64,000 bases of DNA. Source: an uncultured Gemmatimonadales bacterium. GTDB lineage: Bacteria > Gemmatimonadota > Gemmatimonadetes > Gemmatimonadales > GWC2-71-9. Shown piece after piece: positions 11,336-34,517 of this stretch. The stretch lies in contig CAVSQW010000007.1 of the NCBI GenBank assembly GCA_963730185.1, positions 416,001-480,000 on the forward strand. Direction: 5' to 3'. Numbering within the stretch: position 1 is the first letter of the stretch; each line of letters starts with the position of its first letter. The position numbers and the translations under genes were made by a program. Below the pieces are notes generated by a model, which was not told the DNA's origin, ran no database searches, and saw only the letters and a list, made by a program, of their open reading frames with translations.

Positions 11336-11849
11336 ATGGGCAAGACTCGGCGATGGATCTGGGCGGTCTCGGGGGCGGCGGTGGTGGTGCTGGCCGGGTG
11401 CGGCTCGGCGGAGCAGGGGGCGCCGGCTCTGGGCTCCGCCGCCAACGCCGCCCTGACCGATACCCTCAAGGCCCGGATCGCCGCGGCCTACGACTTCAGC
11501 CGGCCGGGAGTGGCCGAGCGGATCGAGCTCCCTCTACCCCGACACCGGGCGGGTGATCTCGGTCAGCGGGGGCAACGTGATCACGTCGCCCGACTCGCTC
11601 CGGGCTGGGATCGCGGCCTTTTGGCGGAACACCGGGCAGAACATGCGCGAGGCCAAGTGGGTCTGGGGCGACGTCTACCTCGACCGACTCGGGCCCGACG
11701 CCGCGGTGCTCACCGGCACCTGGACCATTCCGCACATCGCCCCCACCGGGCGGCCGCACGTGCTGCGGGGTGCCTGGACCGCTCTCTTCCGCCGGATCGG
11801 CGGTCGGTGGATGATCGTTACCGAGCATCTCTCCTCTCCCCCGAGCTGA
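11336..11849 (+). CDS. NTF2-like (DUF4440/SnoaL) lipoprotein; +1 frameshift near 11524
   Basis: Lipobox LAGC; C-terminus LGPDAAVLTGTW...GAWTALFRRIGGRWMIVTEHLS in the next frame. Confidence 0.75.
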
Positions 11850-11851
11850 CG

Positions 11852-14585: not shown

Positions 14586-14679
14586 AGCGCGAATATACGG
14601 CCGCTCGACGGCCGCGGTATGTTTACTCCATGCTTCGCCTGGTTCCTCCCTTCCTTTCTCCCCTCTCGAACTGCGTCTC

Positions 14680-16827
14680 ATGACTCGATTCTTCTCGCGC
14701 GCGGCGCTCGGGGTCGGCGTGGCGCTCTCGCTCCTCGTTTCGTCCCCCGCCTTCGCACAGCAGTCGTTCTCCATCGGGCAGGTCACCACCTTCCCCTTTC
14801 CCACCGAGCTGGTCACCGCCCGAACCGGCCAGCGGATGGCCTGGGTCCTCGAGGACCACGGCGTCCGGAACGTGTGGGGCGCCGAGGGCCCGACCTGGCA
14901 GCCTCGGAAGCTCACCGCGTTTACCCAGGACGATGGCCAGGACCTGACCCAGCTGGCCTTCACGGCGGACGGCAACCGCCTGGTGTTCGTCCGGGGCGGC
15001 GACCACGGCTCGAACTGGCCGTCGCCGGGCGGGATCGAACCGAATCCGACCAGCGGCACGACCCGGACCCGGATCGAGGTCTGGACCGTCGCCTGGACCG
15101 GCGGAGGCAGCCGGATGCTCGCTCCGGGCGATCAGCCGGCGATCAGTCCGGGCGGCGATCGGGTGGCCTTCATCCAGGGCGGCCAGGTGTCGGTGGTACC
15201 GCTCGCGCCGGGCGGCAAGGCCAACCAGCTCTTCTTCGCCCGCGGCACCAGCGACGATCTGGCGTGGTCGCCGGACGGCAAGACGCTGGCCTTCGTGTCC
15301 CGGCGACCCGGCGGCTACAGCCTGCTCGGTCTCTACACCGGTCCCAAGGTGCCGATCCGCTGGCTGGCGCCCTTCACGGACCGGGTCAGCTCGCCGGTCT
15401 GGTCGCCGGACGGGCGGGAGATCGCCTATGTGAGCCAGCCGGGTCAGGGCGGGCCGCCCGAGACTCTGCTGGAGCAACACCCCAATCCGTGGTCGCTCGA
15501 GGTGGTGAACGTGGCGTCGGGCGAGGCCCGGACCGTGTGGTCGAGCCCGAATACCCTGCTGGGCTCGCGCCCCTACACCCAAGGCGGGGTCAACCTGGCC
15601 TGGGGTGCCGGCGGGCGGCTGGTGTTCGTCGCCAATCTCGACGGCTGGCCGCACCTCTACTCGATCGCTTCGGCCGGCGGCGATCCGTTGCTCCTGACTC
15701 CCGGCGACTTCATGGTCGAGTTCGTGACCATGTCCCCCGATGGCCGGTCCATCGTCTACAACGCCAACACCGGCCCGGACGCCTCCGACGACGATCGCCG
15801 TCACCTCTTCCGGGTGCCGGTCGACCAGGCCCATCCGGTGGAGCTGACCCGAGGCACCGATCTCGAGTGGGGGCCGAGGGTGACCGGCGACGGCCGCTTC
15901 GTGGCGCTGTTCACCAGCGGCCCGACCCGGCCGCCGTTCCCCGCCGTGCTGCCCATCGACGGGGGAACACCGAAGCTGCTCGGCCAGGACCGGCTGCCGG
16001 CCGACTTCCCGTCGACCGGTTTGGTGGTGCCCGAGAAGGTCGTGATCCCCTCGATCGACGGGACGCCGATCCACATGCAGCTCTTCCGGTCGGCCCAGGG
16101 ACCGGCCAAGCGGCCGGCGCTGGTGTACGTCCACGGTGGGCCGCCGCGCCAGATGCTCTTGGGCTTCCACTACTGGCACTACTACGCCTCCGACTACGCC
16201 GTCAATCAGTACCTCGCGAGCCGGGGCTTCGTGGTGGTCTCGGTGAACTACCGGTTGGGGATCGGCTACGGCGACCACTTCATGCAGCCGGAGCACGCGG
16301 GACCTGCCGGGGCGTCGGAATACCAGGACGTGTTGGCGGCGGAGCACTACCTGGCCGGCCGGCCCGACGTCGACGCGAGCCGGATCGGGATCTGGGGCGG
16401 CTCCTACGGCGGCTACCTGACGGCGCTCGCGCTGGCCCGGAATTCCGATCTCTTCCGGGCCGGGGTGGACCTCCACGGGGTGCACGATTGGATCGCCGAC
16501 TACGGCGACTACCTCAAGAACATGCAGCTCCGCTACGAGAAGCCGTCGGACCTGAAGCAGGCGCTCGACGTGGCGTGGCAGTCGTCGCCGGTGGCCGACA
16601 TCGGCACGTGGCGCTCGCCGGTGCTGCTGATCCACGGCGACGACGACCGGAACGTCGAGGTGAGTCAGACGGTGGACCTGGTCCAGCGGCTCCGGGCCCA
16701 GGGGGTTCAGTTCGAGGAGCTCTTGATCCCGGACGAGATCCACGACTTCCTGCGGTACGCGACCTGGCAGAAGGTCGGTCGGGCGGTGACGTCCTATCTG
16801 GAGCGGGAGCTGGGCTCGCCGAAGTGA
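14680..16827 (+). CDS. S9 family peptidase (prolyl oligopeptidase/DPP-IV-like)
   Basis: Signal peptide, WSPDG propeller repeats, VHGGP, GGSYGG nucleophile, HGDDDRNV, DEIH. Confidence 0.92.
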   Translation: MTRFFSRAALGVGVALSLLVSSPAFAQQSFSIGQVTTFPFPTELVTARTGQRMAWVLEDHGVRNVWGAEGPTWQPRKLTAFTQDDGQDLTQLAFTADGNRLVFVRGGDHGSNWPSPGGIEPNPTSGTTRTRIEVWTVAWTGGGSRMLAPGDQPAISPGGDRVAFIQGGQVSVVPLAPGGKANQLFFARGTSDDLAWSPDGKTLAFVSRRPGGYSLLGLYTGPKVPIRWLAPFTDRVSSPVWSPDGREIAYVSQPGQGGPPETLLEQHPNPWSLEVVNVASGEARTVWSSPNTLLGSRPYTQGGVNLAWGAGGRLVFVANLDGWPHLYSIASAGGDPLLLTPGDFMVEFVTMSPDGRSIVYNANTGPDASDDDRRHLFRVPVDQAHPVELTRGTDLEWGPRVTGDGRFVALFTSGPTRPPFPAVLPIDGGTPKLLGQDRLPADFPSTGLVVPEKVVIPSIDGTPIHMQLFRSAQGPAKRPALVYVHGGPPRQMLLGFHYWHYYASDYAVNQYLASRGFVVVSVNYRLGIGYGDHFMQPEHAGPAGASEYQDVLAAEHYLAGRPDVDASRIGIWGGSYGGYLTALALARNSDLFRAGVDLHGVHDWIADYGDYLKNMQLRYEKPSDLKQALDVAWQSSPVADIGTWRSPVLLIHGDDDRNVEVSQTVDLVQRLRAQGVQFEELLIPDEIHDFLRYATWQKVGRAVTSYLERELGSPK

Positions 16828-16873: not shown

Positions 16874-17584
16874 TCAGTCGAGAAGGGCCGTCAGCGGGCG
16901 AAAGCGATACCCCGCCTCCCGGGCGTCGCGAATGATGTCGGGCAGGGCCCGAGCGGTCGGGGTCCGGTCTCCGTCGGGGTCGTAGCCGTCGCCGTCGTGC
17001 AGCAGGATGATGGCGCCGGGCCGGAGCCGGTGGCGTACCCGCTGGCGGATCTCGGCGGCGTCGATCGGGTCGGAGTCCCAGACCCCGAAGGTCCAGCCGA
17101 AGGTGCGATAACCCAGCCGGCGGGTGGCTCGGCTCACGAACGGGTTCCGATATCCGTGGGGAGCCCGGAACGCCCGGGGGGCCCGACCGGTCACGTCCGC
17201 GATCGTGGCGTGGGCCCGGTCCAGCTCGCTCGCGATTCGCCGGGGCCCGCTCCAGTGCAGCTTGACGTGGGTGGTGGTGTGGTTGCCGATCAGGTGGCCC
17301 GCCTCCGTTGCCCGCCGGGCCAGGGCGGGGTGCCGCTGCACGAAGTTGCCCACCATGAAGAAGGCCGCCGGCACGCCGGCCTCCTCGAGGGCATCGAGCA
17401 CGGCCGGCGTGGCTCGTCCGTTCGGCCCGTCGTCGAACGTGAGATAGAGCTCCCGGCGGCGCGGTCCCCGTCCCACCACTGGTCCCACCAGCGAGGCGTT
17501 GGGGTAGTAGATCCCGAGCGCGGCCGCCCCGGCCGCGGTGGCCGCCCCGGCCGCGGTGGCCGCCCCCACCAACGTTCCAATCAT
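16874..17584 (-). CDS. Polysaccharide deacetylase (CE4/NodB family)
   Basis: YLTFDDGP, GNHTTTH, FRAPHG, IILLHDG; ATG overlaps the upstream stop (ATGA). Confidence 0.9.
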   Translation of the reverse strand: MIGTLVGAATAAGAATAAGAAALGIYYPNASLVGPVVGRGPRRRELYLTFDDGPNGRATPAVLDALEEAGVPAAFFMVGNFVQRHPALARRATEAGHLIGNHTTTHVKLHWSGPRRIASELDRAHATIADVTGRAPRAFRAPHGYRNPFVSRATRRLGYRTFGWTFGVWDSDPIDAAEIRQRVRHRLRPGAIILLHDGDGYDPDGDRTPTARALPDIIRDAREAGYRFRPLTALLD

Positions 17585-18702
17585 GCCGCGATCGCGGGGC
17601 GGTGGTGGGGCGAGAGGATCCGCTCGTAGACCGCGACGAGGCGGTCGGTCACCCGCGGCCAGGCATAGGGCAGGGCCGCGGCCCGGGCGGCGGTGCTCCG
17701 GGCGGACCACTGGAGCGGTTCCGCCGCCAACCGGGTGACGGCGTCCGCCCAGGCCCCGGCATCGAGCGCCGGGACGTAGCTGGCGTTCGGGCCGGCCACC
17801 TCCCGGAAGGCGGGGAGGTCGGAGACTACCGCCGGGGTCGCCGACGCGAGCGCCTCGAGCAGGGTGACTCCGAACGAGGCCCGGCGCGTGGGGCAGAGAT
17901 AGAGGTGCGCCCCCCGATAGAGCGCCGGGCGTTCCTCGCGCACGGCCCCGAGAAAGCGGACCGGCAGGCCGCGGGCCTGCCCTTCGTAGCGGCGCCGCCA
18001 GGGGCCGTCGCCGGCCACGGTCAGCTCGACCCGGGGCCATCGCGCCGCGATGGCGGGCATCGCCTCCAGGATCGTGTCCAGGCCGTTCCGTGGCTCGAGC
18101 CGACCCAGGAAGAGCAGCCGCAATGCGGCGCCGGGTTGGGGAGGGCGCCGCCGCCTGCCGGGATGGAACGCCGTGACGTCGATCCCGTTCGGGATGATCT
18201 CCCAGGGCGCCCGGAAGTAGCGGCTCATCGCCTCGATCGCGGCGCTGCTCACGGCGACCGTGGCGGCCAGGCGGTCCAGCCGGGCCTGCAACGGCCGACG
18301 GAACACCGCATAGCCGACCGACTGCGGGAACCAGGTATGGAAGGTGGCCATCGCCGGCAGGCCCAGTCGCTCGGCCACGGTGGGGGCGGCCAGGCCGAGC
18401 ACCGGGCTCAAGCCGCCGTGCACGTGCACCAGCTCGGTCCGGGTCTCGCGGAAGACCTGCGCTAGCTGATCGCCGAGGCGCCAGCCGGTGGTGATCCGGG
18501 CAACGCCGCCGTTGGCGTAGATCACCAGGCTGGTGCCCACCCGCCGCACATGGGGTGGATCGGCGCGGACGTGCCGCATCTTCGCGGTCACGATGGTCGG
18601 CTGGTGTCCCCGGGCGGCGAGCTCGAGGGCCAGGTGATGAACGTGTTCGGGCACGCCTCCCAGCTGCGGGTAGTAGTCCTCAGCGACGAGGGCGATGCGC
18701 AT
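17581..18702 (-). CDS. GT4 glycosyltransferase, PimA-like
   Basis: YYPQLGGVPEHV, ATFHT, IIPNGID, FLGRLEPRNG, SFGVTLLEALA. Confidence 0.9.
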   Translation of the reverse strand: MRIALVAEDYYPQLGGVPEHVHHLALELAARGHQPTIVTAKMRHVRADPPHVRRVGTSLVIYANGGVARITTGWRLGDQLAQVFRETRTELVHVHGGLSPVLGLAAPTVAERLGLPAMATFHTWFPQSVGYAVFRRPLQARLDRLAATVAVSSAAIEAMSRYFRAPWEIIPNGIDVTAFHPGRRRRPPQPGAALRLLFLGRLEPRNGLDTILEAMPAIAARWPRVELTVAGDGPWRRRYEGQARGLPVRFLGAVREERPALYRGAHLYLCPTRRASFGVTLLEALASATPAVVSDLPAFREVAGPNASYVPALDAGAWADAVTRLAAEPLQWSARSTAARAAALPYAWPRVTDRLVAVYERILSPHHRPAIAA

Positions 18703-19609
18703 CGGCCCCTCCAGGGTGAGCAGGGTCGTTCCCGGCCAGGGGGAGCGACGCGATCAGTCGTTCGACGGAGGCGACCACGGCGTCGGGTCGCTCCTCATGG
18801 ATGTAGTGGCCCACGCCTGGCAGCGAGTCGACGGCGAACGAGGGAAGCTCCCGGTCCATCAGGGCGACCTCGCTCGAGTCGACGCCGCCGTCGTGCGGCG
18901 CCTCGCCGACGATCAGCCGGACCGGGCAGTGGATTCGAGGGAGCTCCGGCGCCAGTGAGTCCGGCTCGTGGGAGTGACCCATGGCCTTGAAGGCGCGGAT
19001 GGTCGCGCCCAGGTCACGGGTGGCGCCGTCGGTGTAGCCCGCGACCACCGAGTCGGTGACCCAGGTCGGGTTCCCGGACGATGCCTGGAGCATGCCGCGG
19101 ATCCGGGACCGGACGAAGCCGCGCCCCAGGAGCCGGATCACCGGGGCGAGCTTCATCGCCCGGCGGAAGCCGGCCGTGGTGGCCTGCTCGGTGGGCCCGC
19201 CCTCGAGGCTCACCACCCCACGGACCAGGTTAGGATGCCGGACCGCCAGCCGGAGGGCGATCGCCCCGCCCAAGGAGTGCGCGATGACGACGGCCGGGCC
19301 GAGGCCGAGAGTGTCGAGCACGGCGGCGATCAGGTCGCTCTGGGTCGCGAGCGAGTAGTCGCCGTGGCTCGGTCGCGAGGAATAGCCGACGCCCAGGGGC
19401 TCGATGATCACCGCCCGGAACCCGGCGGCCTGAAGCAGCGGGACCACCCGGCGAAAGCCGAACGCGGAGCCGAAGAGACCCGGGATCAGCACCACGGCGG
19501 GGCCGGTGCCGACGCTCACCACGTGCAGGGTGTCGGGTGGGTCGGGCGCGGTCGACGACGCCAGGGTCGGCTGGATCAGGGCCAGCGCCAGCAGCGCGGC
19601 CCGAATCAT
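18680..19609 (-). CDS. Exported alpha/beta hydrolase
   Basis: Signal peptide, AHSLGG nucleophile, [15 protein letters not shown] overlap with the upstream gene. Confidence 0.85.
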
Positions 19610-20235
19610 CGCGCCACCTCGGCCCGGCGCTCGGCTGCCTCGAGCGCGGCCGCTCGCGAGGCGACGGTGTCGAAGTCGCCGTCCAGTCCGTCCATCCGGT
19701 GCTGGAACTGGATGTCGGCCCGGAGCAGGCCGAGCACGTAGGCGGTGAGGTTGACCCAGAAGACGATGGCAAAGAGCGTGGCGAAGGGCCACCAGAGTCC
19801 GAAGTAGAGGACCACCCGCTTGGCGCCGAGGTCGATCCGGGAGCGGTCCACCACGGTGGTGAGGAGGAGGATCGCAACCAGGGCCAGGGCGATGAGCTTG
19901 ACCGGCGCGAGCCCGGCGACGGCGCAGCCGGCGAAGATCACCGCCTCGCTGGCCCGGTCCAGGCGGGTGTCGAGCCGGTGACCCTCCGGACTCGCCAGCC
20001 CGAACTCCCGGGCAATGCCGCCGTCGAGCCCGTCCAGTAGCTGGCCGAGCGCCATCAATCCGAGGCCGAGGTCGAGGCGGCCGAGCGCGATCGCGCCGCC
20101 GGCCAGGACACTGGCCCCGAACGCCGCCCAGGACACCTGGCCGGGCGAGAGCCCGAGCCGGACATGGAGGAGGTTGAAGAGCGGGCGTTGGGCCCGGTCT
20201 ACGACCGACTGAAGAACAGGAAGAGATTCGAGCAT
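19606..20235 (-). CDS. CDP-alcohol phosphatidyltransferase (short)
   Basis: DGLDGGIAR...GHRLDTRLD signature; TM helices. Confidence 0.88.
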
Positions 20236-20636
20236 AGGAGGATCGCCGCGAGGACGCCTTCCTTGGCCCCGTCAGGCAGGACACTGATCCAGCCGCGGGT
20301 CACGTGAGTGGAGTATGGGTACCAGGGCATCTTCTCATAGCGGACGGCGTAGTCCATCGCGAGGTGGATTGCGAAGAAGATGGCCGGCACCAGGGTGCCG
20401 ATCATGAGGCAGATCGGGAGGATCCAGAGCAAGGCCACCGGCTCCTGCAAGGAGGAGCGCCAGTAGTAGCCGCGCTTGTCGCGGAGTCCCACGGCCTTGA
20501 GGTAGAACGGTGCCTTGATGACGTGATCGATGTCGACCCCGACCCCGAACCCATAGGCGAGCACGGCGTCGGTGCCGTGGAGGCCGAGGATCTTGACGCC
20601 GAGGGTGGTGGCCAGGACGTGAGTGAAGATCGTCAT
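20199..20636 (-). CDS. Membrane-bound metal-dependent hydrolase-like protein (YdjM/DUF457-like)
   Basis: TH near the N-terminus, GVDIDH, HLAMD; hydrophobic; ATGA-coupled. Confidence 0.6.
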
Positions 20637-21646
20637 GGGGTCGTGCTCTCGAGGGGGACGGAGGCCGGGACCGGGCGACGGCCGCCGACCCAGATCAGGA
20701 GGAGCCCGGCGGCGATCCAGAGGAGATCGCGCGCCCGCCCGACCACCGCGGCGTAGAGCCCGAGGCTCGTCGGGTAGCCGAGCTGCTGGAAAAGGAGCAG
20801 GGTGGCCCCCTCGCGGGTGCCGAGCTCGAAGGGCACGATGAAGAGCAGGTTGCCGACCAGTCCTTCGAGTCCCGAGACGACAAAGGCGTCGAGGTAGCCG
20901 ACGGCGTGGCCGGCGCTCGCCCCGATCAGGCAGAACTCGAGCGCGATGACGCACCGGCTGAGGAATTCGTACGCCACGGCCGCCCGGAAGCGCCCCGGCC
21001 GCTCGTGATAGAACGCGACGATCTGGCGGTCCATCGCGAGGATGGCGTCCTGATGCGGGTCGAGCCGGCGGGCCAGCCGGCGGAGCCCCGGCACCCGGCC
21101 GGCCCAGCCGATCACCCGGGCCACCACGCCGTCCCGGTGGGCGGCGAGGAGCAGGATGATGAGGGCCGAGACCAGGAACAGCGCCGCGGTGAGCAGCAGG
21201 AGCCAGGTGACGGTGTAGGGCAGCAGCACGAACCCGAGCCCGACCGCGAAGAGCCAGAGGAGCAGCAGGCCCAGGGTCCGTACCATGGTGTGGAGCACCA
21301 CCGAGGCGGTCGCCCGCGACGTGCCGGTCCAGGGAGCGAGCGCCGCGATCTTGTAGGGCTCGCCGCCGGCGTTGACCATCGGCGTGATGTAGTTGATCGC
21401 GGTTCCGGCGACGACCGTCGCCAGGGTCCGTCGAAAGGCCGGTCGGGCCGGCTCGTCGGCCAGGATCGTGTGCCACGCCGCGGCGTCCAGGACGTGGACC
21501 AGTCCGTACAGGGCCAGGATGGGAACGATCATCCAGCCCGTCCGCCGGGCGTCGACCAAGAGGTCGCCTCCGCCGGCGGCTCGGACCACCAGCAGGAAGA
21601 GCGCGAGGCCTCCCAGAAAGAGCGCCAGCCGGACCCGGCGGCTCAC
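20633..21646 (-). CDS. Lysylphosphatidylglycerol-synthase TM / flippase-like membrane protein (UPF0104)
   Basis: INYITPMVNAGGEPYK, FIVPFELGTREG; about 8 TM helices. Confidence 0.85.
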   Translation of the reverse strand: MSRRVRLALFLGGLALFLLVVRAAGGGDLLVDARRTGWMIVPILALYGLVHVLDAAAWHTILADEPARPAFRRTLATVVAGTAINYITPMVNAGGEPYKIAALAPWTGTSRATASVVLHTMVRTLGLLLLWLFAVGLGFVLLPYTVTWLLLLTAALFLVSALIILLLAAHRDGVVARVIGWAGRVPGLRRLARRLDPHQDAILAMDRQIVAFYHERPGRFRAAVAYEFLSRCVIALEFCLIGASAGHAVGYLDAFVVSGLEGLVGNLLFIVPFELGTREGATLLLFQQLGYPTSLGLYAAVVGRARDLLWIAAGLLLIWVGGRRPVPASVPLESTTP

Positions 21647-22680
21647 GCGGCTGCGCCTCGGGCGCGGGCCCGAACCCGGCGCCGCGGGCGGGACCGTCCG
21701 TATCCCCCTTCGAGCACCGTGGCGACCCGCTCGATGTCCTCCAGCGGGCCGTCGGCGTCGCCGGTGTCGAGCCGGCGGACGAAGTCGGTGAACAGGTCGG
21801 CGAACCAGTGCCGGTACGATGCCTTGTCGAGCTGCGCCGTGAAGTCGAGGGACTCGACGGCGCCGTCGGCCGCGAGCTGGAGCCGGCCGCCCTCCCAGGA
21901 GATGGTGCCCCGGTCGCCGACGAAGCGAATCCGGGTCTCCCGATGATGGGCCGCCCAGGTGAGAAAGAGCACGGCCAACCGGTCCGGGTAACGCATCACC
22001 AGATGGGCGGTGTCCTCCACGTCATAGTCGGCATGGCGAAGGCGGGTGGTCCATCCGTGGATCGCGCCGGGGGGGCCGGCGACGTCGAGCACCTCGTAGA
22101 TCAGATGGGTCCCGTGGTCGAGCAGCACCCCGCCGAGACCGCCCGCCCGGGTGGCCCGCCAGGGGACCGGGGTCGGATCGGCCCCGCGGTCGGCGTGCAG
22201 GCGGTACACCGTGAACTCGGCCAGCGACCAGTGGCCGATCGCGCCACCGTCGAGCCAGGCCCGCACCTGCCGCCAGGCCGGGTTGAACCGGTACTGGTGG
22301 CACGGCATCACCACCCGCCCGGCTCGGCGGGCCGCCTCGGCGATGGTCCGGGCGTCGTCGGCCGCGATGGCGACCGGCTTCTCGCAGAGCACGTGATAGC
22401 CCTGGTCCAGCGCCCAGAGCGTAAGCTCGAGGTGGGTGGCCGTGGGGGTGCAGATGTCGACGAAGTCGATTGGACCGAACCGGTCGATCGCCGTCCGGGT
22501 CGGGACGACCTCGAGGCCGTCGACCACCTGGCCCGCCGGCAGAGAGGCATCGACCGCTCCGACGATGTCGATCCGGTCGTGGGGTGACGGGCCCCGCCGG
22601 AAGCCCGGCAGGTGGGCGGTCCGCGCCACGTTGCCCAGACCGATGATGAGGCCGCGATAGCGACGAGGTTCAGCCGGCAT
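21643..22680 (-). CDS. Gfo/Idh/MocA family oxidoreductase
   Basis: IIGLGNVA, HVLCEKP, GGVLLDHGTH, EDTA. Confidence 0.9.
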   Translation of the reverse strand: MPAEPRRYRGLIIGLGNVARTAHLPGFRRGPSPHDRIDIVGAVDASLPAGQVVDGLEVVPTRTAIDRFGPIDFVDICTPTATHLELTLWALDQGYHVLCEKPVAIAADDARTIAEAARRAGRVVMPCHQYRFNPAWRQVRAWLDGGAIGHWSLAEFTVYRLHADRGADPTPVPWRATRAGGLGGVLLDHGTHLIYEVLDVAGPPGAIHGWTTRLRHADYDVEDTAHLVMRYPDRLAVLFLTWAAHHRETRIRFVGDRGTISWEGGRLQLAADGAVESLDFTAQLDKASYRHWFADLFTDFVRRLDTGDADGPLEDIERVATVLEGGYGRSRPRRRVRARARGAAA

Positions 22681-23560
22681 AGGCCGCGCTTTCGCTGGGC
22701 TCGGTGTCGAGCAGCAGGCGGACGCCGCGCTCCTGCCGAACGATGAGCATGAGGAGAACCAGGTTGAGCGGCCCGATCGCCACCCAGAAGTAGGAGGCCG
22801 GCCAGCCCGGCACGGCCGTCACGGCCAGGAGCGCGAACCGCACGTTCTGCGCGATCAGCGCCCCGGCGACGACGACCGGCCGGGCCAGCGCGCGGTACCC
22901 GTCGTTCGGGAGGCTCGACCCCGGTTGGGTTCGCCAGCGCCGGACCAGCTCCGTCGTGGCGGGGAGGAGTCGAACTTGACGCTGCACGTACCCGGCGTAG
23001 CTGCGGTAGGCCAGGCCGGCCCAGAAGCCGGTCGGCCCGGTCCCGAGATCCTCGGGCAGGTCGAGCTCGCCGGTCCCGGCGCCGCCGAAGCGGAGGTAGA
23101 CCTGGCGGAGGAAGTCGATCGCGCTGGCCTGAAGGGAATGACTGATGCCGGCCGCGATCACCAAGACCACCGCGGGCCACCCGGCCCCGGCCAGCAGCAG
23201 CCGAACCAGGAGGTGCAGGTAGAGGTTGAGGAACCGAAGGTTGTCGGAGAGCCCGTCCAGCACCCGGCCGAACCGGGTGCCCCCGCCCCGGATCCGGGCG
23301 ACCTGGCCGTCGGCGCTGTCGAGGACGTCGGACACCACGAAGAGGGCCAGGCCGAGCGCGCCGAGCCGCCAGTCGTCGTAAAGGAAGAGGTGGCCGGCCA
23401 CCAGGCCCACGGCCAGGGATGCCAGCGTCACCTGGTCCGCCGTCACCCGGGTGGCGGCGAGGCCCCGCGCGAGCCGGTAGCCGACCGGGCGGAAGAAGTG
23501 GAGGTCGATCCAGTCCTCCACCGCGTCGCCCTTAGCCGCGAGCGCGTTCGGCGGCTTCAA
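22670..23560 (-). CDS. CDP-alcohol phosphatidyltransferase (long)
   Basis: AAGGAGG before TTG; EDWIDLHFFRP; DSADGQVAR...GRVLDGLSD. Confidence 0.9.
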   Translation of the reverse strand: MKPPNALAAKGDAVEDWIDLHFFRPVGYRLARGLAATRVTADQVTLASLAVGLVAGHLFLYDDWRLGALGLALFVVSDVLDSADGQVARIRGGGTRFGRVLDGLSDNLRFLNLYLHLLVRLLLAGAGWPAVVLVIAAGISHSLQASAIDFLRQVYLRFGGAGTGELDLPEDLGTGPTGFWAGLAYRSYAGYVQRQVRLLPATTELVRRWRTQPGSSLPNDGYRALARPVVVAGALIAQNVRFALLAVTAVPGWPASYFWVAIGPLNLVLLMLIVRQERGVRLLLDTEPSESAAYAG

Positions 23561-24866
23561 GGAGCACCTCCTTCATGATCCCCAGCGCCTCCATCGCCTC
23601 GGCTTCCCGGATCACCAGGGGCGGATTGAGGCGCACTTCGGGATTGTAGATCATCGCCAGCACGCCCCGGCGGAGCAGGGTGTCGAAGATCCAGCGGGTC
23701 TCGGGCTTGGCCAGGGGCGCGCCGGTGTCCGGATGGACCAGGCTCATCCCGAGCAGGAGGCCCCGGCCGCGAGCCCGGCGGACGATCGGGATCTCCCGCT
23801 CCCACCGGGTCAGCTCGTCGAGCATCAGGCCGCCCAGCCGGCGGCTGTGCTCCACCAGACCCTCGTCGAGGATGGTCTCGATCGTGACCCGGGCGGCCGC
23901 GGCGGCCATCGGGTTGCCACCGTAGCTCGACGAGCTGCCGCTCGGGTTGGCCCACGGCTTGGCGAAGGCAACCGACTCGCGGATGATGATGCCGCTCATC
24001 GGGAAGCCGCCGCCGAAGCCCTTGCCGACCAGGATCATGTCCGGGACGATGCCCTCGTGCTCGACCGCGAACATCCGGCCGGTCCGGCCGAACCCGGTGA
24101 TCATCTCGTCGCAGATCAGGACCGCGCCGAGCTCGTCGGCCAAGGCGCGGAGCTGGGCCAGGTAGCCGGGGGGCGGCACGATGTTGCCGGCCGTGCCCTG
24201 AATCGGCTCGACCAGAATGGCCGCCAGGTCGGCGGTGGTTTCGAGCGCCAGCTTCTTCCGCAGAAAGTCCACGCAGTGCCAGGCGCAGGAGGTCGGCTCC
24301 TTGTCGAAGGCGCAGCTGGCGCACGACGCGTAGGGCGACGAATAGGTGCCCGGCATCAGGGGACCGAGGGCGTGCTTGAAGTCGCCGCTCAGGAGGGGCA
24401 GGACGCCGCCGGTCTTGCCGTGGAAGCCGCCCCAGAAGCCGACCACTTCCGTCTTGCCGGTGTAGGCCTTGGCCAGCCGGATGGCCGCCTCGACCGCTTC
24501 GGCGCCGCTGGAGTAGAGCTGGGTCCGGTTCAGGTCGCCGGGCGCGAGCTCGGCCAGGAGACGGACCAGCCGGGCTCGGTTCTCGGTGGTGAAGCTCCCA
24601 ACGTGGACCCGCCCCAGCTGGCGGGCCATGGCCTCCACGTACCGCGGGTGGGCGTAGCCCAGACTGGCGACCCCCACGCCGGCCAGGAGGTCGATGTATC
24701 GGTTCCCGTCCACGTCCCAGAGCAGGGCGCCTTCGCCCCGGTCGATGCTGAGCTGGCTGTAGAGCGCCACGCTCTGCGTCCCGGGGGCGAGGTGCCTGGC
24801 CTCGTCGGCAAAATCGCGGGCCGAACGGGGGCCGGGGAGCTGAAGATCGAGCAACGGTTGAGCCAC
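23532..24866 (-). CDS. Class III PLP-dependent aminotransferase
   Basis: DVDGNRYIDL, SGAEAVE, GGFHGKT, EPIQG, DEMITGFGRTG, VGKGFGGG. Confidence 0.92.
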   Translation of the reverse strand: MAQPLLDLQLPGPRSARDFADEARHLAPGTQSVALYSQLSIDRGEGALLWDVDGNRYIDLLAGVGVASLGYAHPRYVEAMARQLGRVHVGSFTTENRARLVRLLAELAPGDLNRTQLYSSGAEAVEAAIRLAKAYTGKTEVVGFWGGFHGKTGGVLPLLSGDFKHALGPLMPGTYSSPYASCASCAFDKEPTSCAWHCVDFLRKKLALETTADLAAILVEPIQGTAGNIVPPPGYLAQLRALADELGAVLICDEMITGFGRTGRMFAVEHEGIVPDMILVGKGFGGGFPMSGIIIRESVAFAKPWANPSGSSSSYGGNPMAAAAARVTIETILDEGLVEHSRRLGGLMLDELTRWEREIPIVRRARGRGLLLGMSLVHPDTGAPLAKPETRWIFDTLLRRGVLAMIYNPEVRLNPPLVIREAEAMEALGIMKEVLLEAAERARG

Positions 24867-24871
24867 CGGAG

Positions 24872-25696
24872 TTACTCCTGCGCGAAGAGACGGAGAAAGC
24901 GGTGCGCGATGGCGTCGGCTGCGGCCTCGCGCACGGGGGCATAGCTGGGCCAGTCGTTCATGTCGATCAGGATCGGATCGTCGAACGATGGAAACGCGGC
25001 GTCGCCGCCGAAGGCCTCGAGTCCCAGCACCTCGGCGGCGCGGAACGCGACCCGGGCCAGCGACGCGATGTCGGGCCGCGGCTGATCGTCGGGGATCGGG
25101 GCGGCCGGGTAGGCATGGAAAAAGGGCGTGCCCCGGACGCCATAAAACTTGAGCACCGGACCACCGACGTGGGCCTGCAACGCGACCGTCGCGATCCCGC
25201 GATGGGCAAACCCGGCGACGGCCGGCGCGAGCCCCGCCAGCGGCACCGAGACGACGTCCTCGGCCGACTGGGCGTGCACGTCGCCTCGCTTGACCCAGAC
25301 CGGCGCCCCGTCGCGCGCCAGCTCGAACGGGAAGCGAGTGTGGTCATGGCCCGGGCCGATGAGGATGGTCTCGGGAAACGGGAGGCCGGCCCCGGTCAGG
25401 AGCTCGACCAGACGGGCCCGATGACAGTTGAGCACCCCGTCGGCCGGGTTCAGCACCGGGGTACGGTTGGGGTCGAGGTCGGCTAACCGCCGACTGGCGA
25501 GCGGTCCCTGGCACATGTTGAGATAGCCGTCGGCCTTGGGCAGCCGGCCGGCCTCGATCTCGATCTCGGAGCTCCGCTGGACCTCGTGGCCGTCGGCTTC
25601 GACCCGGGTCACGACCGCGTCGAGGATGGCGGCATCGTTGTCTCGGTGGCGGCCGGGGGAGAAGGACGGGTTCCGGTACAAGGCGGCGAGTCGCAT
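24872..25696 (-). CDS. ATP-grasp fold protein, ITPK1-like motifs
   Basis: VWVKRGD, LQAHVGGPVLKFYGV, LGLEAFGGD, IDMNDWPSY. Confidence 0.7.
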   Translation of the reverse strand: MRLAALYRNPSFSPGRHRDNDAAILDAVVTRVEADGHEVQRSSEIEIEAGRLPKADGYLNMCQGPLASRRLADLDPNRTPVLNPADGVLNCHRARLVELLTGAGLPFPETILIGPGHDHTRFPFELARDGAPVWVKRGDVHAQSAEDVVSVPLAGLAPAVAGFAHRGIATVALQAHVGGPVLKFYGVRGTPFFHAYPAAPIPDDQPRPDIASLARVAFRAAEVLGLEAFGGDAAFPSFDDPILIDMNDWPSYAPVREAAADAIAHRFLRLFAQE

Positions 25697-25699
25697 GGC

Positions 25700-26401
25700 T
25701 CAGCCCCGGGGCTCGGAGGCGACGAGCGCCTCGGCGACGATCAAATTGCGGCGCCGATCGAGATCGACCATCTGGGCGACGTCGACGGTCTCGACCCGGG
25801 CGCCGAGGGAGAGGAGGCGGCGGAGGAACTCGCGCATCCGCGTCGCGCCGGCCGCGACGGCCACGGCCGCCTCGGCGCGGATGGTCGGACTGAAGGCGTA
25901 GACGCCGCCGGTGACCCAGGCGCCGGCGTCGGCATGGTCTTCGAGCGCCGCCACCCGGCCGGCCTTGCCGAACCGAACCGCCAGCGGCGACTCGTCGGTG
26001 CCCGAGGGCGTGATGGCCAGGACCACGTCGGCGCCGGCCGTCACGGCCCGGTCGGCGACGCCATAGACCCGCTCCCAATCGGCCCGCGCCATCACGGTAT
26101 CCACCATCGAGCAGAAGACCGGCCCGGCGCCCACCGCCTCGATCCCGAGGGCGAGCGTGTGGAGCGAGCCGGGCGTGTCGCAGGGAATGACGTGGACTCC
26201 GGCCCGACTCCGGAGGACGGCTGGAATCGGGACTCTCGCGCGGAGCAGGCAGGTGACGTCGCTGCAGCCGAGCGCCAGGAACTGGGCGGCGAGTCGGACC
26301 AGCTGAGGCTCGCCGCCGATGGGAACCAGCGCTTTCGGGGTCGCGATCCCGTCGTCGGCCAGACGCCGGCCTTCGCCGCCGGCCAGGATCAGACCGCGCA
26401 T
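25700..26401 (-). CDS. Nucleotidyltransferase (NTP_transf; sugar/inositol-phosphate cytidylyltransferase-like)
   Basis: LILAGGEGRRL...PKALV, MVDT, VDLD. Confidence 0.88.
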   Translation of the reverse strand: MRGLILAGGEGRRLADDGIATPKALVPIGGEPQLVRLAAQFLALGCSDVTCLLRARVPIPAVLRSRAGVHVIPCDTPGSLHTLALGIEAVGAGPVFCSMVDTVMARADWERVYGVADRAVTAGADVVLAITPSGTDESPLAVRFGKAGRVAALEDHADAGAWVTGGVYAFSPTIRAEAAVAVAAGATRMREFLRRLLSLGARVETVDVAQMVDLDRRRNLIVAEALVASEPRG

Positions 26402-27081
26402 CGGGCCTCGATCATTCGGGGCAGCTCCGTCAGGCTCGCGATCCGGAGGTCGGTTACCCCGAGGGCGGGCCAGGGACGGGCGTCGGGGGCAAGCCAACAG
26501 GCGGTGAGGCCGAGCGCGGCGGCCGGCCGGACGTCGGCGTCGAAGTTGTCGCCGATCATCCAGGTGCGGTCGGGGGCGGCGTCCAGCTGGCCGATGGCCC
26601 ACTCGAAGATCCCGAGCGAGGGCTTGGCGATGCCCAGGCGCCCGGAGTCGGCCGCCACCTCGAAGAGAGAAGCCAACCCGAGCTCGGCCAGACAGGGGCT
26701 CAGATTCCCGCTGAAGTTGGAGATCACGCCGAGCCGGTGGGTGTCCCGAAGCCGGGTCAGGATGTCCCGGTTGCGGCGAGCGTGCCGGCGGGCGCCGTCC
26801 ACGACCCGCCGGGCCACCCGGTCGGCCAGGGCGGGCGGGGTGGTCTCGAGGTCGGCGGCCAGCCAGGCGGCTTCCCGGAACACCATGCTGGAGAAATCGG
26901 CCTCATGAATGCCGGCCCACTCGAGCAGAGCGCGATCGGCGGCCCGGAAGCGGGCCGCGAAGTGCTCGGGCGGGACGACGATGCCTTCGGCGCTGAAGGC
27001 GCGATGGAACTGGACGCTCGAGGGAACGCCGTCGGCGTCGAGCGTGCCGCCGAAGTCGAAGAGAAGAACGCCACGGGTCAT
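26389..27081 (-). CDS. HAD family hydrolase
   Basis: FDFGGTLD, VISNF, KP, MIGDNFDADV. Confidence 0.9.
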   Translation of the reverse strand: MTRGVLLFDFGGTLDADGVPSSVQFHRAFSAEGIVVPPEHFAARFRAADRALLEWAGIHEADFSSMVFREAAWLAADLETTPPALADRVARRVVDGARRHARRNRDILTRLRDTHRLGVISNFSGNLSPCLAELGLASLFEVAADSGRLGIAKPSLGIFEWAIGQLDAAPDRTWMIGDNFDADVRPAAALGLTACWLAPDARPWPALGVTDLRIASLTELPRMIEARCAV

Positions 27082-27095
27082 GGTGGCGCGGGAGG

Positions 27096-27244
27096 GCAAT
27101 CGCTATGCCCTGGGCGTCCGGGGCCGCCGGCGGCGGCTTAACTCGTTGCGGAGTACGACGAAGGCTCACATGACCGGGGCATGAAGGCCTGGGAGCGATC
27201 ACCCGGTGGGGCAGGGAGCCCCGGCCGATGTCCGTTTTTGCCCC
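27096..27244 (-). promoter_or_regulatory. sigma54 promoter with IHF-like site and three enhancer-like sites
   Basis: Minus strand GGGCAT-AGCGA-TTGC at 27096-27110; TAA-N4-TTG at 27139-27148; GGGGC-N5-GCCCC-like sites at 27176, 27208 and 27230. Confidence 0.7.
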
Positions 27245-27251
27245 GGTGCCT

Positions 27252-28619
27252 TCAGGTGGACCCGCCAGGCCAGTCGCGATACTCCTCCATCTTCCGATAG
27301 AGGGTCTTACGATCCAGGCCCAGCAGCTCGGCCGCCCGGGTCTTGTTCCCACCAGTCTCCCGGAGGATCTCCAGGATGTAGAGGCGCTCCACTTCCTCGA
27401 GCGGCAGGTGGCGCCGCGCCGCACCGGTGAGCATGGTGCCCACGTTGCCGGATTGGCGGATCCGCTCCGGCAGGTGCTCGGCGCCGATCGGCTGCCCCTG
27501 GGCGAGCCAGGCGGCCCGGATGATGGTGTTCCGGAGCTCCCGGACGTTGCCCGGCCACGGGTAGCCGACCAGCAGATCCATCGCGTCGGCGGTGACGGTC
27601 TGGGGTGGGGCGTGGCCGGGATCGATGGCCGCCCGCTCCAGAAAGTGGGCCGCCAGCACTGGGATCTCGGTCGGTCGCTCTCGGAGGGGAGGCAGCTGGA
27701 GGGTGAGGACGTTGAGCCGCCAGTAGAGGTCGTCCCGGAATCGGCCCGCCTCCACCTCGGCCTCGAGGTTCCGGTTGGTGGCGGCCAGCAGCCGGACGTC
27801 GATGGGATGCTCGTGGGTGGCGCCCAGTGGCCGGATCTCGCCCTGCTCGAGCACCCGGAGCAGCTTGGGCTGCAGGGCGAGGGGCAGCTCGGCGATCTCG
27901 TCGAGCAGCAGCGTGCCTCCGTGGGCCACCTGGAAGAGCCCTTCTTTGGCGCGGTCGGCGCCGGTGAAGGCCCCTCGCTCGTGCCCGAAGAGCTCCGATT
28001 CCAGCAACGTCTCGGGCAGGGCACCGCAGTTGACGGTGACGAACGCCGCCCGACCCGAAAGGCGGTGCAAGGCGCGCGCGACCAGCTCTTTCCCGGTGCC
28101 GCTCTCACCGGTGATCAACACGGCGTGGGGCAGGCCCGCGCTTCGTCGGACCAGCTCGTAGAGCCCCAGCATCGGGGGACTGGTCCCGATGAACTCGATC
28201 GGCACCGCGGTCTGCTGGCTTCGGGCCGCGCGGGCGGCCTCGCGGCGGGGACGGCTTTCCGCCAGGGCGCGGGCCACCGTGGCGAGCAACTCGTCCGTCC
28301 CGAGCGGCTTGGTCAGGTAGTCGTACCCGCCGGAGCGGACCAGGTCGATCGCGGATTCGATCGACCCGAACGCGGTCATCACGATGACGTTGATCTCGGG
28401 GCAGCGGGTCCGGACGATCCGGAGGAGGTCGCGCCCGCTGCCGCCCGGCATGATCAGGTCGGTCAGCACCAGGTCCACCCCATCGCCCCGGGTCAGGGCC
28501 GCCTCGGCCGCGTCCGCTCCCGGGAAGGGGAGCACGGTGTGGCCGGCGTGGGCCAGTACCTCGACCAGTAGCTCGCGCAGCTCGCGGTCGTCCTCCACCA
28601 CCATGATCCGGTCAGGCAT
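27252..28619 (-). CDS. sigma54-dependent response regulator (NtrC/AtoC family)
   Basis: REC domain, [28 protein letters not shown], Fis-type HTH. Confidence 0.95.
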   Translation of the reverse strand: MPDRIMVVEDDRELRELLVEVLAHAGHTVLPFPGADAAEAALTRGDGVDLVLTDLIMPGGSGRDLLRIVRTRCPEINVIVMTAFGSIESAIDLVRSGGYDYLTKPLGTDELLATVARALAESRPRREAARAARSQQTAVPIEFIGTSPPMLGLYELVRRSAGLPHAVLITGESGTGKELVARALHRLSGRAAFVTVNCGALPETLLESELFGHERGAFTGADRAKEGLFQVAHGGTLLLDEIAELPLALQPKLLRVLEQGEIRPLGATHEHPIDVRLLAATNRNLEAEVEAGRFRDDLYWRLNVLTLQLPPLRERPTEIPVLAAHFLERAAIDPGHAPPQTVTADAMDLLVGYPWPGNVRELRNTIIRAAWLAQGQPIGAEHLPERIRQSGNVGTMLTGAARRHLPLEEVERLYILEILRETGGNKTRAAELLGLDRKTLYRKMEEYRDWPGGST

Positions 28620-30081
28620 CGGCAGGCGGGGCCGAAGCCCCCTCCGCCATCGGGAACTCGAGTCGGAAGCAGGCGCCGGCCTGCTCCTCCGGCTCGAGGG
28701 TCAGCCGGCCGCCGTGCTCTTCGGCCACCCGACGGGCCACCGCGAGTCCCAACCCGGTCCCCTGCGGCTTGGTCGTGTAGAACGGGCTGAACACCTGGGC
28801 GGCCGAGTCGGCGGGGACGCCCGGTCCGCTGTCGACCACTTCCACCTCGACCCGCCGGTCCCTCGCCCGGCCCCGAATCAGGATGGTCCGCTGCTCGGAG
28901 CTGGCCAGCTCCATCGCCTGGCTCGCGTTCATGAGCAGGTTCACGAACAGTTGATGGAGGAGGTCGGGATCGCCCCGGATCAGGAGCGGGCCTTCCAAGT
29001 CGCGGTGCACGGTGACGCCGGTTCGCTCCAGTTCGGTGTCGAGCAGGGCCATGGCTCCGTCGACGACCTCGGTGACGTCGATCTCTCGCAGCTTGGGCTC
29101 CCGCCGCTTGGCGAAGTCCAGGAGGTTCCTGACGGTCCTGGTGATCCGGCTGATCTGGCGGATGATGATCTGGAGGTGGCGCTCCTGAACCTCGGGTCCC
29201 GAGGGAGTGCGAAGCATCATCTCGGCCCGGCCGGAGATCACGTTGAGCGGCGCGGCGACCTCGTGGGCCAGGCCCGCGGCCAGGTTGCCGATCTCGGCCA
29301 TCTTCTCCGCTTCTCGCAGCCGTCGCTCGAGCGCGATCCGATCCTCCACCTGATGAGCCGCCTCGGCCCGCGCCACCTCGAGCCGCTGGGCCATCCCGTT
29401 GAACTCCCGGGCGATCTCCTCCATCTCGGCCCCGCTCGGGCCCTCCGGAATCCGATACGAAAGGTCGCCACCGCCGACCGTCCGGGCCGCCACCGCCAAC
29501 CGCGCCATGGGTCGAGAGACCACCCGGCGGACCAGCCAGAGGGTGACCAGCGTCACGGCCACCAAGAGCGAGACGGTGTTGAGGAGGAAGCGCAGTCGGA
29601 GCGCGTCGAGCTGATCGCCGATGAACGAGATCCGTTGGGCGACCTCCAGCACGCCGACCGGATGACCGGCCCGGCCCCGGAGCGGGCGGAGGACACTCAG
29701 CACCAGCTCGTCGCCGAGCTCGCGGGTGACGGTGCGCTGGCGTCCGGTGGTCAGCACCCGCTGAAGCACGGCGAGGGGCGCCGAGCCGGCCGACCGCTGA
29801 GGGTCGGCAGCGTAGGCCTGACGCCCGGTGCTGTCGTAGACGATGACCGCGTACACGCTCGGCTCCCGCTTGAGCGCGTCGACGATCGGGCCGATGTCGC
29901 TCGGCGTGGCCGCCGTCCGGTCGACCACCAGCCCGAGCACGGTGGCGTAGGCCGCGAGCCCCTGCTCGACCTGCGGTTGGAGCGTCCCCTCGCTCTCGAG
30001 CAGGGCCCAGACGGCGTACGCCACCATGATCAGGGTCACGGTCGGCAGCAGCGAGAGCAGGAGGCGCGTGCTGAGCTTCAT
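28612..30081 (-). CDS. Membrane sensor histidine kinase with HAMP domain
   Basis: Two TM helices flanking a periplasmic domain, [30 protein letters not shown]. Confidence 0.93.
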
Positions 30082-30212
30082 GGCGTGCGCGGGATCATCT
30101 CCGGTGGCGGTCGGCTCCGCAAGGGTCGGCCCGGAGGGCCGCCCGCTTGTTCCGGCCGGCCGCCCCCCTGTCGACCCTGCGGCCGGCCGGTGCCCTGACC
30201 ATATTCCGGGCC

Positions 30213-34517
<4,305 letters not shown>

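Follow-up and report, generated by a model that had tools for sequence, protein, structure and literature searches.

The closest described system to the operon examined here is the "alternative" inositol-lipid cluster proposed for Bacteroides (Phocaeicola) vulgatus and Prevotella veroralis, both of which make inositol-phosphoceramide (Heaver et al. 2022; PMC9246714). Adjacency of the gene for inositol-3-phosphate synthase (MIPS) to this cluster has exceptions (PMC9246714). The operon itself comprises twelve genes in a 64,000-nucleotide stretch of contig CAVSQW010000007.1 (GenBank assembly GCA_963730185.1, positions 416,001 to 480,000; referred to below as the window) from an uncultured Gemmatimonadales bacterium. 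In Rhodothermus marinus, the IPCT/BEPIS route (Jorge et al., via PMC4587543) uses cytidine diphosphate (CDP)-inositol as head-group donor, a CDP-alcohol transferase that joins it to a lipid alcohol and a cyclitol supplied by MIPS, as in the model put forward for the window; the comparison is by description, and the route as given in the cited part of that source contains no kinase, HAD or amination step. Amination of inositol is described for a branch of hygromycin A biosynthesis, in which MIPS (Hyg18), a phosphatase (Hyg25), a PF01408 dehydrogenase (Hyg17) and an aminotransferase (Hyg8) lead to neo-inosamine; oxidation of myo-inositol by Hyg17 is the only step shown in vitro, and the role of Hyg8 is proposed (PMC10949010). 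Finally, GpgSDF of Pseudomonas aeruginosa and HexSDF of Clostridioides difficile combine a family 4 glycosyltransferase (GT4), a deacetylase and an LPG-synthase-TM flippase to make glucosamine (GlcN)-bearing amino-sugar lipids (PMC12713373).

Literature searches, which covered titles and abstract openings with subscription papers mostly outside the search, returned no amino-inositol (inosamine) lipid, no bacterial ITPK, no later study of the B. vulgatus cluster and nothing relevant on Gemmatimonadota sphingolipids. In the main text of a paper on Black Sea sphingolipids, the words "inositol" and "inosamine" do not occur. From gene content and arrangement, we consider it rather probable that the operon makes an amino-inositol lipid (inosamine-phosphoceramide or phospholipid) via a CDP-activated route.

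A core cluster shared with Bacteroidota

The first six genes of the operon encode a HAD-family hydrolase, a nucleotidyltransferase, an ATP-grasp protein, a class III aminotransferase (AT3), CDP-alcohol phosphotransferase 1 (CDP1) and a Gfo/Idh/MocA dehydrogenase (Gfo). Their conservation in Gemmatimonadota was followed in a sample of 301 genomes, of which 37 carry the ATP-grasp gene; named relatives of its product are Gemmatimonadales. Twenty of 36 relatives were fetched, one of which was cut by a contig end, and all 19 that were scored contained the six genes in this order. Behind this block, a flippase-like LPG-synthase-TM gene follows in 17 of the 19, a YdjM-like gene with a second CDP-alcohol phosphotransferase gene (CDP2) in 11, and an alpha/beta hydrolase, PimA-like GT4 and NodB deacetylase in 2. 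All twelve genes in order were present in 9 of 104 loci examined (7 distinct contigs when those of identical length are taken as one); in the same-genus genome G148, pieces of the cluster lie at the ends of three contigs. The operon is three nested modules rather than one fixed unit. The sequence-only reading of this DNA, which had treated the twelve genes as a single pathway, stands as far as the core is concerned, since this is conserved together in 19 of 19 relatives and in several phyla; it fails for the full set, whose order recurs in only 7 distinct loci and whose GT4–NodB pair is mostly free-standing in genomes without the core.

The comparison across phyla used the 80 top-scoring stretches out of 594 confirmed in GTDB with a profile of 105 ATP-grasp relatives. 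Genes for the nucleotidyltransferase, ATP-grasp protein, CDP1, flippase, HAD hydrolase and MIPS occur together in Bacteroidota, in some Melioribacter and Ignavibacterium and in one Kapabacteria genome. Most Ignavibacteria loci contain that same cluster with AT3 inserted behind the ATP-grasp gene and Gfo behind CDP1, with MIPS adjacent and often with MlaEFD genes inside. Verrucomicrobiota, delta- and betaproteobacterial loci share the order CDP1–HAD–nucleotidyltransferase–ATP-grasp–AT3–Gfo. With cluster proteins of Sphingobacterium anhuiense and of a Bacteroides metagenome-assembled genome as queries (five apiece, rather than those of B. vulgatus), the best matches in the window's own genome were genes of the window (E 2e-14 to 2e-43); the HAD, nucleotidyltransferase and LPG-synthase-TM genes were each the best own-genome match of their Bacteroidota cluster counterpart. 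The earlier link to the Bacteroidota CDP-inositol cluster is thus borne out by these searches and by synteny across several phyla. That reading did not count the ATP-grasp gene among the Bacteroidota set, whereas the gene sits in the Bacteroidota cluster itself.

Of the alternative cluster of Phocaeicola vulgatus and Prevotella, the window has orthologues of the nucleotidyltransferase, CDP-alcohol transferase, HAD and LPG-synthase-like genes. An ATP-grasp orthologue is present in the Bacteroidota loci that were fetched and goes unmentioned in the cluster description cited from PMC9246714. The window differs in having AT3 and Gfo, the YdjM–CDP2 pair and the hydrolase–GT4–NodB tail, and in having MIPS unlinked; the reference cluster is itself only proposed. 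Motif I of the HAD hydrolase, D-x-G-G-T-L-D, lacks the second Asp of the DxD pattern, and S-N, K and GD-x4-D are kept (72 homologues). CDP1 retains its signature aspartates and finds AF2299 as its best PDB match (E 4e-10).

Sphingobacterium anhuiense, which does not carry the amination pair, is the only named species isolate in the 80 GTDB loci. No named cultured carrier of the aminated cluster was found among the matches listed for the aminotransferase (n = 120) or in those 80 loci. Four Bacteroidales loci, mostly Muribaculaceae-type (L113, L116, L121 and L130), mix PgpA, PIP synthase and PAP2 genes of the B. thetaiotaomicron type with the alternative cluster, suggesting that both inositol-lipid routes can coexist. 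In a Myxococcales locus (L093:9295-12713), genes for B12 radical SAM, YdjC and GT21 proteins, which we take to be hpnJ/K/I-like, come after the aminated cluster.

The predicted amination pair and the supply of inositol

AT3 and Gfo behave as a strict pair. In the 64 of the 80 GTDB loci that extend at least 3.5 kb downstream (16 were too short and were dropped), both genes were present in 49 and neither in 15; a single one was never found. The amination enzymes named in the sequence-only reading are therefore present as a both-or-none unit. MIPS lay within the locus in 11 of the 49 aminated versus 12 of the 15 unaminated loci. In the window's own genome it is found outside the operon, at C15:437756-439093, directly after a PIP-synthase-like gene, and the two make up a separate two-gene unit of PIP-synthase-like CDP-alcohol transferase and MIPS (G000 C15:437048-439093; L001). 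The earlier statement that the synthase is absent accordingly holds for the operon and not for the genome, and the idea that amination replaces the synthase does not survive, given that 11 of the 49 aminated loci contain MIPS and that the window's own genome has it outside the operon.

MIPS was also found in 34 of 36 core-carrying relatives. As it is present in 280 of the 301 genomes of the phylum sample (a tally that includes genome G157), this co-presence says little and was dropped as evidence. The physical linkage of MIPS in other phyla is real evidence for inositol supply. From the same 280 of 301, Gemmatimonadota may be near-universal makers of inositol lipids.

In AT3, the pyridoxal phosphate (PLP)-binding Asp253 and Lys282 are kept and K151, K164 and R412 are invariant; in Gfo, the EKP and D-x3-H motifs are kept. 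By enzyme type, the window model resembles the hygromycin A branch, with MIPS, a phosphatase, a PF01408 dehydrogenase and an aminotransferase taking inositol to inosamine; the hygromycin A product is an antibiotic rather than a lipid, and its pathway contains no CDP step. Two observations weigh against assigning an inosamine product, namely that the best PDB matches of AT3 are GABA aminotransferases and racemases and those of Gfo generic sugar or inositol dehydrogenases and oxidoreductases, with no close characterised relative of either. The pair could instead carry out a cyclitol epimerisation or the amination of a sugar or polyol, leaving a head group that is not inosamine; the class III PLP group also contains racemases, epimerases and lyases, several of them among the top matches, and the Gfo matches are unspecific. 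We regard this as unlikely, as the pair is inserted in an otherwise identical, MIPS-linked Ignavibacteria cluster and neither gene stands alone in any of the 64 loci, a pattern typical of an oxidation that leads into a transamination.

The ATP-grasp protein as a predicted kinase

The ATP-grasp fold was assigned from an AlphaFold model (mean pLDDT, the model's per-residue confidence, 89), which gave Z scores of about 20 to ATP-grasp enzymes. Across the 80 loci, K183 is conserved in 80, Y185 in 79 and both D245 and N247 in 80, in the motifs K-F-Y and D-x-N. These align with AtITPK4, whereas the corresponding places in RimK and PsnB are taken by R and E-x-N, and in ZmITPK1 the residues Lys198 and Tyr200 coordinate the substrate phosphate (PMC7614388). 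A narrow profile likewise found AtITPK4 as its best PDB match (E 2.8e-4). The conserved residues favour a kinase over a ligase for this protein.

Several results point the other way. With a wide profile, PsnB ranked first (3.9e-7), followed by ITPK4 (1.7e-6), RimK (6.6e-5) and ITPK1 (2.8e-4). Ligases also scored higher in the fold search (Z 19.5-20.5) than PPIP5K (17.8) and ITPK1 (17.5), and so the fold search does not decide between the two activities. Pfam matches of 105 family members, all weak, were split between ATPgrasp_ST (18), ITPK (12) and RimK (12). The cut-off of the ITPK family (PF05770) was not reached: the window protein had no match, and the 12 of 105 relatives matched weakly (best E 0.002). 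A single-sequence PDB search with the protein gave nothing useful.

A rival reading, in which the protein is an amide ligase attaching an acyl or aminoacyl group to the newly formed amine, has in its favour that ligases rank first both by fold and with the wide profile. This is nevertheless quite improbable, since the gene is present in all 15 loci that do not have the amination pair, and K and D-x-N stand where the aligned ligases carry R and E-x-N. Returning to the kinase, the window protein shares with human ITPK1 and AtITPK4 the ATP-grasp fold and the K-x-Y and D-x-N motifs; it differs in being only about 15% identical, below the Pfam cut-off and matched equally well or better by ligase folds, so that its kinase role is a prediction. 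For the distribution of the ITPK family, the cited part of a review names only eukaryotes and archaea (PMC8024741).

The ATP-grasp family forms 1200 clusters at 50% identity and includes natural fusions to the nucleotidyltransferase, the HAD hydrolase, both of these or a CDP-alcohol transferase. Among 12 longer homologues scanned, 8 were nucleotidyltransferase–ATP-grasp fusions, one of which also carries the HAD domain. Individual examples are P0171 (HAD–nucleotidyltransferase–ATP-grasp), P0258 (ATP-grasp–HAD) and P0243 (ATP-grasp–CDP-alcohol transferase). The pairing with HAD, as neighbour or fusion in the window's family, is reminiscent of plant ITPK4, where AtITPK4 has a fused HAD-like domain.

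The probable lipid acceptor

The genes around the core bear on the acceptor used by CDP1. Genes resembling bCerS, of the GNAT family, were found in 30 of the 100 loci fetched (27 of 93 once 7 duplicates are removed), mostly with spt-like and often with cerR-like genes. These labels were given by Pfam family and by a gene layout that we presume to be that of ceramide synthesis, rather than by comparison with characterised enzymes. In one family (f2), bCerS was present in 10 of 69 genomes, among them all 3 core carriers, where the genes are adjacent to the core. The window's own genome contains spt-, bCerS-, cerR- and PAP2-like genes in a row (C8:460366-464469; L132). On the other side, bCerS is near-universal in the window's own family (123 of 125), and the spt-like gene on C8 is broken over three reading frames. 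In the phylum sample, bCerS-like genes are present in 178 of the 301 genomes; because of the high background, co-presence within Gemmatimonadota was dropped as evidence. The bCerS neighbourhood, the adjacency in f2 and the set on C8 make ceramide the likelier acceptor, the other candidate being diacylglycerol.

MlaE-like genes were found in 13 of the 100 fetched loci. MlaE/F/D-type lipid-transport genes lie within Ignavibacteria clusters and, in one Gemmatimonadales genus, just after NodB (L052:5334-7745, L033, L034 and L157-L159).

Such a core could also produce a soluble phosphodiester solute akin to di-myo-inositol phosphate. Its nucleotidyltransferase and CDP-alcohol transferase have the layout of IPCT/DIPPS, and CDP1 best matches AF2299 in the PDB, with IPCT/DIPPS a weak match (E 0.014). 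The flippase-like gene, MlaEFD and the spt/bCerS/cerR-like neighbours speak instead for the lipid product predicted in the sequence-only reading, and Bacteroidota carriers make inositol-phosphoceramide; a soluble product is thus very improbable. Other lipid classes were considered and rejected in the window's own genome, which is 82% complete. For hopanoid tailoring, no match to squalene-hopene cyclase (PF13243) was obtained, and for phosphonolipids, the best score for phosphoenolpyruvate mutase was 53 bits against a cut-off of 320.

Proposed pathway and order of steps

From the genes with their domains and catalytic motifs, and from computed orthology, synteny and co-occurrence, we infer substrates, order of steps, lipid anchor and product as follows. 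MIPS, encoded on contig C15, would form inositol-3-phosphate, from which the HAD hydrolase would take off the phosphate. Gfo and AT3 would then convert inositol via inosose to inosamine, which the ITPK-like ATP-grasp enzyme would phosphorylate and the nucleotidyltransferase would turn into CDP-inosamine. CDP1 would link the inosamine head group to a lipid, most likely ceramide, and the LPG-synthase-TM protein would flip this lipid. Module 2 would provide a second, probably CDP-diacylglycerol-derived version, with a phosphate trimmed by the YdjM-like hydrolase. In module 3, N-acetylglucosamine (GlcNAc) would optionally be added by the PimA-like GT4 and de-N-acetylated by NodB, giving a GlcN-inositol-type lipid. 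Weighing against this scheme, its Bacteroidota reference cluster is itself a proposal, and the nested presence of the modules is confounded by kinship.

Within the same model, the steps may run in another order, with the ATP-grasp kinase acting first on inositol-3-phosphate, oxidation and amination taking place on the phosphorylated or CDP-bound cyclitol and the HAD hydrolase taking off the surplus phosphate late. For recombinant ITPK1s, free inositol is not a substrate (PMC6900528), which argues for kinase-first over HAD-first. The invariant K151, K164 and R412 of AT3 could bind a phosphate, and the nucleotidyltransferase–ATP-grasp fusions suggest a hand-over from kinase to nucleotidyltransferase. 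These fusions fit either order, and the Hyg17 precedent oxidises free inositol; the kinase-first order is possible, if on the doubtful side.

Module 2: the YdjM-like protein and CDP2

Module 2 is found only in core carriers: the YdjM-like gene is present in 28 of the 301 genomes, and all 28 carry the core. The YdjM–CDP2 pair also occurs in three Ignavibacteria-type loci, and in two genomes of one genus (G084 and G278) it stands apart from the core, with a CdsA-family gene after it. In the YdjM-like protein, residues H6, D35, D37, H38, E65, H91 and D95 are invariant. Its label is based on ESM-Atlas clusters and on a weak YdjM match in an orthologue (E 5e-4, below cut-off); in a fold search the best Z was 5.1, and three phospholipase C chains were found at Z 3.9-4.6, all within noise. 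The best PDB match of CDP2 is the PIP synthase of Mycobacterium tuberculosis (E 3.5e-5), and its NCBIfam match to archaetidylinositol-phosphate/PIP synthase is below cut-off. A CDP-diacylglycerol-dependent transfer with a phosphatase partner is weakly suggested by these matches. An alternative model for CDP2 comes by analogy from the PgsA-domain enzyme CpgA of Caulobacter, through which the head group of a sphingolipid receives a second phospho-unit (PMC9393093); CDP2 might carry out an addition of this type.

Module 3: the predicted glucosamine tail

The best PDB match of the GT4 is PimA (E 2e-38), with the next phosphatidylinositol (PI) mannosyltransferase at 7e-10. Matches at E 1e-70 were found in 62 of the 301 genomes (again including G157), and a quick tree was built from 65 of 66 other places, which were fetched, and the window. 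The window's GT4 falls in a single subclade of 26 rows (SH-aLRT branch support 100), and all 24 of its 24 genomes are core carriers, 23 of which also carry YdjM. Of the other 25 rows of this subclade, 21 have the hydrolase directly upstream, 8 have NodB downstream and 2 have a flippase. Outside the subclade, NodB lies directly downstream of GT4 in 40 of 40 rows, with the flippase after NodB in 39 and before it in 1; 36 of these 40 rows are in genomes without a core match. Counted per genome, NodB is present in 24 of 25 core carriers with the GT4 versus 0 of 12 core carriers that do not have it, in a search limited to six scored candidates per genome, which may have overlooked some. Since NodB tracks GT4 across core carriers, GlcNAc transfer followed by de-N-acetylation is likely. 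The alpha/beta hydrolase, found in 75 of the 301 genomes, is not core-specific.

The GT4–NodB tail derives from a free-standing module of the GpgSDF/HexSDF type. As in those systems, GT4, deacetylase and LPG-synthase-TM flippase are present in one operon in the window; here the flippase belongs to the core and the tail has none of its own. The GT4 is PimA-like and not orthologous to GpgS (NF053787, 41 bits versus a cut-off of 480), and the deacetylase is of the NodB/CE4 type rather than COG3233. The free-standing PimA-like GT4–NodB–flippase unit was seen in 36 core-less Gemmatimonadota genomes (L135:5649-8523, L141, L142, L145, L146 and others), where it is a candidate route to glucosaminyl-phosphatidylinositol.

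What the tail of the window acts on is finely balanced. GT4–NodB may be a passenger that shares promoter and flippase with the core while glucosaminylating ordinary PI, made by the MIPS and PIP synthase of C15, or phosphatidylglycerol. The 36 of 40 rows outside the subclade are self-contained units in core-less genomes, 12 of 37 core carriers do not have such a GT4, MIPS is widespread (280 of 301) and NodB and flippase are often at a separate site. In particular, of 12 fetched loci in which NodB is unlinked, 9 keep it next to the flippase that the module came with. The acceptor of the GT4 may therefore still be ordinary PI, which tells against the amino-inositol lipid in that role. The restriction of the window's subclade to core carriers is seen also within genera: the core-less genomes G062 and G068 contain only non-subclade GT4, and four core-less genomes of the window's own genus contain no match. 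Three genomes (G120, G172 and G227) carry both GT4 types. These within-genus contrasts favour the lipid made by the core over ordinary PI as GT4 acceptor, and we put the chance that the tail acts on the amino-inositol lipid at about even, with the passenger role somewhat short of that.

Operon layout and genomic setting

The operon (Table 1) spans 27081 to 16874 on the minus strand, beginning with the HAD gene and ending with the NodB gene. Of its junctions, 9 are overlaps of 4-37 nt and 2 are gaps (3 and 5 nt), in agreement with the earlier description of twelve coupled genes in this order. The family labels given in that description also stood up, 10 of 12 by Pfam, the ATP-grasp protein by its AlphaFold fold and the GT4 as PimA-like by PDB match; the proteins with no Pfam match are the ATP-grasp and YdjM-like proteins. 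No operon protein reached an equivalog cut-off in NCBIfam. The motifs kept across phyla are the PLP Asp and Lys, both CDP-alcohol signatures, EKP and D-x3-H of Gfo and those of the HAD hydrolase, whose motif I has D-x-G. The earlier label "exported" for the alpha/beta hydrolase is putative and goes back to a short hydrophobic stretch at its N-terminus.

Table 1. Genes of the operon, with predicted roles, in window coordinates
Feature	Position	Strand	Basis
HAD-family hydrolase, core; predicted inositol-phosphate phosphatase	26389..27081	-	PF00702
Nucleotidyltransferase, core; predicted cytidylyltransferase forming CDP-(amino)inositol	25700..26401	-	PF12804/PF00483
ATP-grasp protein, core; predicted cyclitol kinase	24872..25696	-	AlphaFold model, fold search, profile matches
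Class III PLP aminotransferase (AT3), amination pair	23532..24866	-	PF00202
CDP-alcohol phosphotransferase 1 (CDP1), core, AF2299-like; predicted transfer from CDP-(amino)inositol to ceramide/diacylglycerol	22670..23560	-	PF01066
Gfo/Idh/MocA NAD(P) dehydrogenase, amination pair; predicted to convert inositol to inosose	21643..22680	-	PF01408/PF22725
LPG-synthase-TM (flippase-like) membrane protein, core	20633..21646	-	PF03706
YdjM-like small membrane protein, module 2; possible metal-dependent lipid phosphatase	20199..20636	-	Atlas clusters, conserved residues
CDP-alcohol phosphotransferase 2 (CDP2), PIP-synthase-like, module 2; possibly CDP-diacylglycerol-using	19606..20235	-	PF01066
Alpha/beta hydrolase, module 3, multi-paralogue family	18680..19609	-	PF00561
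PimA-like GT4, module 3; predicted GlcNAc transferase onto inositol-type lipid	17581..18702	-	PDB match, tree, neighbours
NodB/CE4 deacetylase, module 3; predicted GlcNAc-lipid de-N-acetylase	16874..17584	-	PF01522; TFDDGP and H-x3-H motifs

With a G+C content of 72%, the operon is not distinct from its surroundings (about 71% throughout the window). A sigma-70 promoter scan found no promoter, terminator-like matches fall inside genes or at gene starts, and no plasmid match to the aminotransferase was obtained at E 1e-60. Genes for an NtrC-type response regulator and a HAMP histidine kinase lie directly upstream on the same strand (window 27252-30228, minus). A similar pair stands beside the HAD gene in G148 (L032), on the opposite strand, and is not a constant neighbour in other loci. 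At the other end, an unrelated S9-family peptidase gene (14482-16827, plus) converges on the operon, 46 nt from the NodB stop. Further along (about 11450-13300, plus), one gene, presumably serine-hydrolase/beta-lactamase-like, is spread over several reading frames, and together with the multi-frame spt-like gene this suggests indel errors in the assembly.

Discussion

The operon is a new variant of the proposed Bacteroidota-type inositol-lipid pathway. A more far-reaching picture, which we put forward tentatively and think rather unlikely to hold in full, is that an ITPK-type kinase branch, an inosamine lipid and PimA-like/NodB glucosamine addition combine to give a doubly aminated lipid resembling the core of a glycosylphosphatidylinositol (GPI) anchor in soil Gemmatimonadales, while the free-standing tail gives GlcN-phosphatidylinositol in many other Gemmatimonadota. 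The tail points to bacterial GlcNAc transfer and de-N-acetylation on an inositol lipid, which chemically resemble the first steps of GPI-anchor synthesis. The steps are individually accessible to assay with soluble enzymes. If the proposed pathway is correct, the ITPK-like kinase would be a candidate for a missing enzyme in the proposed inositol-sphingolipid route of gut Bacteroidota, and the product would represent an undescribed class of cationic or zwitterionic inositol lipid, distributed across Gemmatimonadota, Ignavibacteria, Verrucomicrobiota, delta- and betaproteobacterial genomes.

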